The position numbers and the translations under genes are program-made. The notes below the pieces were generated by a model. It saw only the letters and a program-made list of their open reading frames with translations. It had not been told where the DNA came from and did not search any database. From Escherichia coli (lineage in GTDB: Bacteria > Pseudomonadota > Gammaproteobacteria > Enterobacterales > Enterobacteriaceae): a DNA stretch of 64,000 nt. This document shows, one piece after another, positions 23,870-27,216 of the stretch (position 1 is the first letter of the stretch; the number at the start of each line of letters is the position of its first letter). The stretch lies in the NCBI RefSeq assembly GCF_003018255.1, contig NZ_CP027440.1; one strand, given 5' to 3'.

Positions 23870-25105
<1,236 letters not shown>

Positions 25106-25175: not shown

Positions 25176-25739
25176 TCAGCGATGCAGGAAATTAGCCAGC
25201 AGTTGATGTCCTTGTTCGCTGAGAATACTTTCTGGATGGAACTGCACGCCTTCCAGATCCCACTGGCGATGGCGAATCCCCATAATCTCGCGGGTTTCGC
25301 TCCAGGCCGTCACTTCAAAGCACGCTGGTAATGAGTCAGGTTCCACCACCAGCGAATGGTAGCGTGTCACGGTAAGTGGATTTGCCAGCCCCCGAAATAC
25401 GCCCACACCGTTATGTATAATCGGCGAGGTTTTGCCGTGCATGACCTTTGCGGCGCGCACAACTTTGCCGCCAAATGCCTGCGCCATTGCCTGATGACCG
25501 AGGCAGACGCCAAGAATCGGCAAGCACCCGGCATAGTTGCGAATAACGTCAAGGGAGATCCCGGCTTCATCTGGCGTACAGGGTCCGGGTGAGATGACAA
25601 TTTTTTGTGGTTTAAGGGCGTCGATATCCGCCAGCGTCAACGCATCGTTGCGCTTAACCAGCACATCCGCCCCCAGTTCACAAAAGTACTGGTAGAGGTT
25701 CCAGGTAAAAGAATCGTAGTTATCAATAAGCAGGATCAT
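25176..25739 (-). CDS. pabA: Aminodeoxychorismate synthase glutamine amidotransferase subunit
   Basis: 187-aa [26 protein letters not shown]...; class I GATase with Cys-His. Confidence 0.96.
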
Positions 25740-25770
25740 GGCGGCTCCGGTACGAAAGAACCGCGCTATT

Positions 25771-26373
25771 TTACTCAGATTCCCCGGCTTCGCTTACCAC
25801 TTTGCTAAATATCATCTGCAGCGCGGTGAGATCCCCCATTGCCCCACTCTGATTTGCCTGATTCCAGGCCTCTTTTTCGATACCCTGCCAGCTCAGTTGG
25901 TAGCCCGCATGAATCGCCAGCTGCTCGAAGAAGATCCGCTGTGCCAGTCCGCTTCCCACACGGAAGGGATGCAGCACGTTGATTTCACAATAGTAATGCG
26001 CCAGCCGCTCGACGAACTTCGCTTTCTCCAGGCCAACCAGATAACCTTCTTCCTCCAGATCCTGCATCAGGGCATTGCCCTCTTTTTCGATATAAGCAAA
26101 GTGGCAGAACGGCGTATCACCCTGATAAATATCAACTTCACGCAGTTGCCCCGCCCAGTCGAAAATATCCTGATACAGCTGGCGATGGATAGTGCGCAAA
26201 TGCGGTAAACCGCGCACCAGCGGACCAAGCTCAATGGTCGCAGCACGTAGCGCCGTCATTTCGTAAGCGGCCTGTTCCAGCCGCTGTTGCTGGCGGATGT
26301 TCAGCCGGTTACGCATGATATCAAGGCCAGGATAAAGATACGGATCGCGCCCTTCGCCGAATTTATCGCTCAT
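25771..26373 (-). CDS. fic: Fic-domain protein
   Basis: 200-aa with [12 protein letters not shown] at residues 135-146; start ATG overlaps yhfG stop. Confidence 0.9.
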
Positions 26374-26530
26374 AGTGCCTCCTCAGCTCTTCAAGGCGCG
26401 CTAAAGCCTCTGCGGCAGTAAGAGTGACTAAAGGCATCTCGACGCCTTCAAGACGGCGACTGGCCTGGAAATTACGATTACGCTGAAGCTCCCAGAGACG
26501 GGACTTTTGCTTATCGGTGAGTTTCTTCAC
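26363..26530 (-). CDS. yhfG: Small protein YhfG (candidate Fic antitoxin-like partner)
   Basis: Absent from the ORF track: GTG start at 26528-26530, 55 codons ([55 protein letters not shown]), TAA at 26363-26365; overlaps fic start by 11 nt. Confidence 0.75.
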
Positions 26531-26603
26531 TTGATGCCTCCCTGAACGTGTCCATTTGCCACAAGTATAAGCGGCAAATCCGGGTTACGCCGGGAGAGCA
26601 GAA

Positions 26604-26625
26604 GCGCGGGCAAGATTGCCCGCGC
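26604..26625 (-). terminator. Hairpin downstream of ppiA
   Basis: gcgcgggc-aagatt-gcccgcgc, 8-bp GC stem; flanking tract only moderately T/C-rich on minus strand. Confidence 0.4.
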
Positions 26626-26634
26626 GAGAAATCA

Positions 26635-27216
<582 letters not shown>

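Follow-up and report, generated by a model that had tools for sequence, protein, structure and literature searches.

We analyzed the overlapping genes yhfG and fic (minus strand, positions 25,771 to 26,530) in a 64,000-nucleotide stretch of Escherichia coli DNA, hereafter the window. An earlier reading of the letters of this DNA (the original prediction) had described them as a small GTG-initiated open reading frame (ORF) running into the start of a Fic-family gene, reminiscent of a toxin-antitoxin pair, with the small protein as a partner that holds Fic inactive. Our results identify the locus, with a probability of about 0.87, as the chromosomal yhfG-fic (ecficA-ecficT) module, a domesticated class I Fic pair working by the mechanism proposed next; nothing contradicting the identity of the two genes was found. 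According to this mechanism, yhfG and fic would be co-transcribed from a sigma-38-dependent (stationary-phase) promoter, the "fic promoter", situated just upstream of yhfG. YhfG would be translated from its GTG codon behind the strong Shine-Dalgarno sequence GGGAGG, and the ribosome-binding site (AGGAGG) and ATG of fic are embedded in the final six codons of yhfG. Since the fic start lies inside the end of yhfG, ribosomes finishing yhfG would reach the fic start, so that both proteins would be made together. YhfG wraps Fic in a 1:1 complex, as the published crystal structures show, and Glu28 of its S24xxxE28G29 motif faces Arg146 (R2) in the signature loop of Fic, taking the place of the nucleotide gamma-phosphate. 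The Fic loop lacks three residues needed for adenosine triphosphate (ATP)-dependent AMPylation (E139V, N141S and R143L) and keeps the catalytic His135 and Arg146. With such a loop, it is more likely that Fic acts on another, putative substrate and that YhfG serves as its regulator and obligate partner.

The geometry of the pair was established by ORF reading on the minus strand. The coding sequence (CDS) of yhfG, also called ecficA (26363..26530, minus strand, 55 codons), starts with GTG at 26530 and ends with TAA at 26365-26363; its assignment is based on ORF reading, the RefSeq CDS, Pfam, NCBIfam and PDB matches, and conservation. The fic CDS, also called ecficT (25771..26373, minus strand, 200 codons), starts with ATG at 26373, in the +1 frame relative to yhfG, and was assigned from ORF reading, NCBIfam, Pfam and a PDB match. 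From the fic ATG to the yhfG TAA, the two genes share the 11 nucleotides (nt) ATGAGCGATAA (26363..26373, minus strand), with a geometry common to 79 of 80 species and letters that are nearly invariant. These coordinates bear out the proposal of a GTG-initiated 55-codon ORF ending 11 nt inside fic. The GTG is the earliest start-capable codon past the in-frame stop upstream, and the only other in-frame start is Met32, which lies 3' of the functional motif. The ORF had been said to be missing from the ORF track, and this was the case: with the default cut-off of 60 amino acids, none is listed between 26374 and 26634, and the 55 residues of YhfG, falling below that value, explain the absence. In this instance, a 60-residue ORF filter hides a genuine module of a small protein and an enzyme. 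RefSeq annotates both overlapping CDSs, for strain 2014C-3338 as well as for K-12 MG1655 (b3362/b3361), where the overlap is likewise 11 nt, and the gene names given in the original prediction agree with this annotation as well as with the Pfam and NCBIfam equivalog assignments.

An ORF of the size of yhfG means nothing when taken alone: 62 ORFs of at least 30 amino acids overlap the surrounding 5.5 kb. What sets yhfG above chance is the conservation of its frame, its start position and its overlap with fic. We compared 80 enterobacterial loci, one genome per species, with Fic identities of 64-99%, and read the small ORF at each locus in the fixed E. coli frame. In 79 of the 80 species it ends in TAA exactly 11 nt into fic; the sole exception is Shimwellia pseudoproteus, whose small ORF ends in TGA. 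This TGA is close to an apparently different fic start. The start position was start-capable in all 79 yhfG genes, as GTG in 36, as ATG at the same codon in 25 and as ATG one codon upstream in 18, and in Enterobacter soli a stop codon stands immediately 5' of the yhfG GTG. Twelve of the 14 species sampled for the Shine-Dalgarno sequence carry GGGAGG 5' of the yhfG start, the remaining two having GGAGG and TGAGG. Furthermore, the column entropies of YhfG by codon position were 25.9/24.6/63.4, and the median ratio of non-synonymous to synonymous substitution rates (dN/dS) against E. coli was 0.088 for yhfG and 0.085 for fic, values that are approximate as the synonymous rate is saturated for distant pairs. 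At the protein level, Ser24 is kept in 79/79, Glu28 in 78/79 and Gly or Asn at position 29 in 76/79 species, and the full inhibition motif [S/T]xxxE[G/N] in 75/79. The three loci of Trabulsiella spp. have the motif SRRLER, in which Gly29 is replaced by Arg, outside [S/T]xxxE[G/N], and Ser24 and Glu28 are kept.

These data bear directly on the most trivial explanation, namely that the 55 codons are open by chance or belong to a leader of fic that is not translated. Short ORFs are abundant in the region and the start codon is GTG, as such an explanation would have it. Against it stand the entropy pattern and low dN/dS, a start position that is kept while switching between GTG and ATG, the conserved Shine-Dalgarno sequence, the invariant Ser24 and near-invariant Glu28, and the solved structure of YhfG bound to Fic. 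We give this explanation practically no credence, and the conservation data together with the crystal structure rule it out. On comparative grounds, the small ORF qualifies as a genuine, constrained protein gene with the GTG as its start.

Both proteins fall within defined families over their entire length. YhfG matched the NCBIfam equivalog NF007573 with 128.4 bits (cut-off 77; residues 1-55 of 55) and Pfam PF10832 with 1.8e-24, and Fic matched the equivalog NF007672 with 430.3 bits (cut-off 181; residues 1-200 of 200) and the Pfam Fic/DOC family PF02661 with 1.5e-13. Among solved structures, YhfG is identical at 54 of 55 residues to chain B of PDB 5JFF, and Fic matches chain A of 5JFZ and 5JFF with E = 3.6e-134; for the two window proteins, the identity to these chains, B and A in 5JFF and 5JFZ, is 98-99%. 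Fic also matches other solved FIC structures, including VbhT and Fic-1. In keeping with a class I FicTA pair, the FIC domain is accompanied by an inhibition motif located on another, small protein whose gene lies immediately 5' of fic, where the codons for S24-R-R-L-E28-G29 occupy 26444..26461 (minus strand; sequence reading, with the role of E28 taken from PMC5033356). The E. coli complex has been described by Stanger, Harms, Dehio and Schirmer in 2016, who renamed yhfG ecficA and fic ecficT (PMC5033356). In that study, EcFicA and EcFicT formed a stable 1:1 complex, as determined by size-exclusion chromatography with multi-angle laser light scattering, with a melting temperature (Tm) of 63 C that drops by 10 C with YhfG E28G, and a salt bridge links E28 to R2 (Arg146) in the Fic motif, just as it does in VbhA-VbhT (PMC5033356; PDB 5JFF/5JFZ). 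A direct 1:1 complex is therefore assigned to the window pair, as both of its proteins match 5JFF/5JFZ, with stoichiometry and salt bridge taken from the same work (PMC5033356). The suggestion that a small partner holds Fic inactive finds its support in this published evidence: the [S/T]xxxE[G/N] motif, the stable 1:1 complex and the R2 salt bridge (PMC5033356). Co-purification of YhfG with Fic had also been reported already, and a toxicity test seems to have been carried out too, with accounts that disagree. The literature already contains the gene pair, its overlap, the physical complex and the inhibitory role of the glutamate, and every standard annotation includes both genes.

The active site of Fic departs from that of AMP transferases. 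The codons of its degenerate signature motif, from H135 to R146, occupy 25936..25971 (minus strand; sequence reading and alignment), and the canonical signature HxFx(D/E)GNGRxxR is not matched, as V stands where D or E is expected, S replaces N and L replaces R1. Aligned without gaps to Fic-1 (8WT0), an active AMPylase, Fic shows the same substitutions, E139V, N141S and R143L, with H135 and R146 retained. Because the residues lost are those needed for ATP-dependent AMPylation, E. coli Fic is probably not a toxin that AMPylates gyrase and topoisomerase IV. In agreement with this, Fic scored 138.4 bits against the equivalog of the VbhT adenylyltransferase toxin (NF045983), failing its cut-off of 800, and neither auto- nor target adenylylation was detected for EcFicT, even with YhfG E28G (PMC5033356). 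The authors of that study see in EcFicT an evolution away from AMP transferases towards an unidentified substrate (PMC5033356). Within our comparative set, H135, R146 and G55 are each kept in 80/80 species, and position 143 is hydrophobic in 72/80. The latter position covaries perfectly with two others, the combination R143/E36/F67 being found in eight deep-branching species and hydrophobic-143/non-E36/Y67 in the other 72, which reproduces published specificity positions. The eight species with R143/E36/F67 may, judging from these residues, retain AMPylation. They include Edaphovirga cremea and Shimwellia pseudoproteus; in Edaphovirga cremea the Fic motif is the fully canonical HPFRDGNGRAQR, but YhfG has Asp in place of Glu28. 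The Gly55 codon (26209..26211, minus strand; position from the sequence) is the one changed in the historical fic-1 (G55R) allele, which leads to filamentation, and delta-fic strains are viable (PMC5033356). The fic-1 mutant is more than 40 years old, and fic is the gene of the founding Fic protein.

The known systems help to place the E. coli pair. EcFicA/EcFicT of K-12 (5JFF, 5JFZ) represents the same locus with the same 11-nt overlap. VbhA/VbhT of Bartonella schoenbuchensis (3SHG, 3ZC7, 3ZCB) likewise pairs a class I Fic with a small antitoxin that is encoded upstream and bears [S/T]xxxE[G/N], and shares the salt bridge between Glu and R2 and the fold (Fic domain match, E = 6e-33). However, VbhT has the canonical motif HPFREGNGRTLR, AMPylates GyrB and ParE and arrests growth, whereas E. 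coli Fic has V139, S141 and L143 and its AMPylation was not detected; besides, VbhT is plasmid-borne and tied to a type IV secretion system, in contrast to the chromosomal and vertically inherited E. coli Fic. The closest solved active homologue is Fic-1 of AntF/Fic-1 from Pseudomonas bijieensis 2P24 (8WT0; E = 2e-49; PMC13327609), encoded like Fic downstream of its antitoxin gene, antF, in the same operon. Fic-1 and E. coli Fic align over 196 residues with no gap and share the numbering of H135 and R146, as well as of antitoxin S24 and E28. Fic-1 differs in having E139, N141 and R143, in AMPylating GyrB at Tyr111 and in forming with AntF a complex that deAMPylates, while the E. coli pair lacks E29, E36 and E139 of the acidic cleft. 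In class II and III Fic proteins (FICD/HYPE, EfFic and NmFic), the same logic of an inhibitory glutamate is found, which in class II also supports deAMPylation, but the inhibitory helix belongs to the same polypeptide, whereas in E. coli it is provided by a separate 55-residue protein from an overlapping upstream gene. The Phd/Doc type II module resembles yhfG-fic in that a Fido-fold toxin is held by a small partner encoded upstream. Doc, nevertheless, phosphorylates EF-Tu and has another motif, Phd binds DNA and is not related to YhfG, and their module is mobile and resides on phage P1.

The likeness to toxin-antitoxin systems stood only in part. The architecture and the complex agree with it, a Fic-YhfG toxin-antitoxin pair was already predicted in 2009 (PMC2701414) and, as in type II systems, the genes form a two-gene operon, 3' of the published fic promoter fragment, in which a small protein antitoxin binds the toxin. 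It is the toxin side that is doubtful, given a degenerate motif and no detected adenylylation even with E28G. Mobility, a trait typical of type II systems although not strictly defining, is also absent, the pair having a fixed position between ppiA and pabA in nearly all 80 species and its region being present in 5425 of 5426 E. coli genomes. We regard the toxin-antitoxin label for yhfG-fic as weak. A growth-arresting FicTA module, in which free Fic AMPylates GyrB/ParE, like VbhT, YeFicT and Fic-1, and YhfG neutralizes it until being degraded under stress, would be the full expression of that label. Such a module would share its architecture with vbhA-vbhT and antF-fic-1 (small upstream gene, inhibition motif and 1:1 complex) and would be in line with the filamentation caused by the fic-1 G55R allele and with a review of 2024 according to which ectopic EcFicT strongly inhibits the growth of E. 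coli (PMC10886550). We nonetheless consider it very unlikely, because three positions depart from the canonical motif, among them R1, the residue that binds the ATP beta-phosphate; because no auto- or target adenylylation was observed (PMC5033356); because of the score of 138 versus 800 bits for the VbhT equivalog; and because the pair is passed on vertically in a syntenic position, without genuine copies on plasmids. The viability of delta-fic strains and the existence of at least two Escherichia albertii strains with a yhfG nonsense codon and an intact fic argue in the same direction. In E. albertii NBRC 107761, codon 13 of yhfG is changed from TGG (W13) to TGA (locus L005:2379-2381) and fic is intact, with 94% identity; E. 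albertii TW07627 has the identical stop (PMC5033356, S4 Fig). Loss of YhfG is thus either tolerated or rescued by UGA read-through, and unless the tryptophan transfer RNA reads through UGA, the stop looks like a species-wide natural "antitoxin knockout".

A different role, that of an anti-phage abortive-infection module releasing Fic upon infection, was also weighed. Fic matches the PADLOC candidate-defence model PDC-S04 (PDLC04838) at 3.9e-75. Many toxin-antitoxin pairs function in phage defence. On the other hand, none of the PADLOC models matches YhfG, Fic has a degenerate catalytic motif, and the fixed position among housekeeping genes in about 80 species and 5425 genomes is just what a variable defence island would not show; such a role appears extremely improbable. 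Somewhat less remote, although still unlikely in our opinion, is that the YhfG-Fic complex is itself the active holoenzyme, for example a deAMPylase using His135 together with YhfG Glu28 and having lost forward AMPylation. The precedent comes from Pseudomonas, where the Fic-1-AntF complex was described in 2026 as a deAMPylase (PMC13327609): Fic-1 E139A and R143A lose AMPylation and keep deAMPylation, whereas H135A and AntF E28G lose deAMPylation (PMC13327609). In E. coli Fic, precisely these two positions, 139 and 143, carry natural substitutions, H135 and R146 (80/80) are kept along with YhfG S24 (79/79) and E28 (78/79), and a dN/dS of 0.09 with vertical inheritance suits a housekeeping subunit more than it would an antidote whose toxin is dead. 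Yet three of the four cleft acids are missing, the acidic-cleft residues E29, E36 and E139 of Fic-1-AntF corresponding to Q29, A36 and V139 here; N141S is outside the residues covered by the Fic-1 study; no AMPylated substrate is known from E. coli; the stability of the complex accounts equally well for the conservation of E28 (E28G, Tm -10 C); and E. albertii tolerates a yhfG nonsense codon. If true, this reading would give the founding Fic protein an activity, and the pair could act as a chromosomal immunity or repair system against incoming FicT-type toxins.

Returning to the domesticated class I pair with YhfG as partner and regulator, several points weigh against it. The "inhibitor" label for YhfG is derived from homology and geometry, because the Fic activity that it would block has no assignment. 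In addition, the growth inhibition mentioned in the review (PMC10886550) conflicts with the statement of the structural study that no activity was detected (PMC5033356). Finally, the RNA at the yhfG-fic junction has no unusual structure that would enforce coupling (z = 0.21).

Regarding expression, the "fic promoter" has been described as strictly dependent on sigma-38 (PMC3089606). The published primers for the promoter fragment map to 26460-26478 and 26719-26736, which places the promoter upstream of yhfG and not of fic. From the stated fragment end positions, transcription would start near 26557-26558, some 27 nt 5' of the yhfG GTG, and the sequence TATACT (26564..26569, minus strand) lies just 5' of this putative start. 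The promoter and the ppiA-yhfG spacer are 100% identical to those of K-12. A scan for sigma-70 consensus promoters between 25000 and 27400 gave none in the ppiA-yhfG spacer, and the overall count was not above that of shuffled sequence; the empty spacer fits a sigma-38 promoter lacking a -35 element, although it is not informative by itself. Further upstream, just 3' of the ppiA stop, a GC-rich hairpin (26604..26625, minus strand; -25.8 kcal/mol, z = -3.4) is probably the ppiA terminator, separating ppiA from the yhfG-fic unit. Its T-tail is weak, and a scan for consensus terminators gave no call there.

The Shine-Dalgarno sequence of yhfG, GGGAGG (26537..26542, minus strand), is located 6 nt 5' of the GTG and is kept in the species sampled. 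That of fic, AGGAGG (26378..26383, minus strand), coincides with yhfG codons 50-51, 4 nt 5' of the ATG, and its purine-rich AGG/GGG core is kept across species. Codon 51 of yhfG (26378-26380) is AGG, encoding Arg51, in the window and AGT, encoding Ser51, in K-12, so that the fic Shine-Dalgarno sequence reads AGGAGG in the former and AGGAGT in the latter. Arg51 is the majority state of YhfG (58/79 species). It is tempting to speculate that the R51 and S51 alleles could alter the Fic:YhfG ratio between strains. Altogether, this gene anatomy makes translational coupling of yhfG and fic plausible. RNA structure hiding the fic ribosome-binding site was considered as well and rejected, as the 106-nt junction folds no better than shuffled sequence (z = 0.21). 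A scan of the whole window against Rfam at gathering thresholds gave zero matches, which indicates that no known leader or small RNA is involved.

The genomic context agrees with stable inheritance. A 1-kb region around the pair, with ppiA, yhfG, fic and pabA as annotated genes, is present in 5425 of 5426 complete E. coli genomes, as a single chromosomal copy in nearly all cases, and the order ppiA-yhfG-fic-pabA is fixed in nearly all 80 species. A search of plasmids returned eight hits, none of them genuine and the records being chromosome-sized or mislabelled: they comprised chromosome-sized "plasmid" records, large Klebsiella records, one Klebsiella oxytoca record of 11 kb that shares 98% identity with E. 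coli and an 82-bp Acidovorax match. The pair is inherited vertically, with no sign of mobility. Downstream of fic, a 31-nt spacer (25740..25770, minus strand; ORF reading) is directly followed by pabA (25176..25739, minus strand; ORF reading), which is found about 31-36 nt 3' of fic in most of the 80 species. A literature search for a link between fic and pabA or folate returned only papers on the "fractional inhibitory concentration". The surroundings consist of ordinary core genes, from gspM to pckA, with ppiA, pabA, argD and crp as housekeeping neighbours.

With regard to the strains used as references, the window is collinear with E. coli 2014C-3338 at 98.46% identity, not being identical throughout, and nothing beyond the gene map was taken over from 2014C-3338. 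Relative to MG1655, YhfG is identical at 54 of 55 residues and the Fic amino acid sequence is identical; of the 15 coding differences from K-12, 14 are synonymous and the single non-synonymous one is YhfG R51S, with R51 in the window and S51 in EcFicA of K-12. Elsewhere in the window, gspO (445-1122, plus strand) is an intact ORF of 225 codons, and the annotation of 2014C-3338 gives its counterpart as a pseudogene interrupted by a stop. Two copies of a 108-bp segment, at 3910-4017 and 4213-4320, are 303 bp apart and share about 84% identity; by position they lie inside chiA and probably represent a duplicated domain. Finally, the K-12 annotation contains a 17-residue gene, yrfJ (b4820), that overlaps the start of argD, and the corresponding stretch of the window is at about 25040-25095 on the minus strand.

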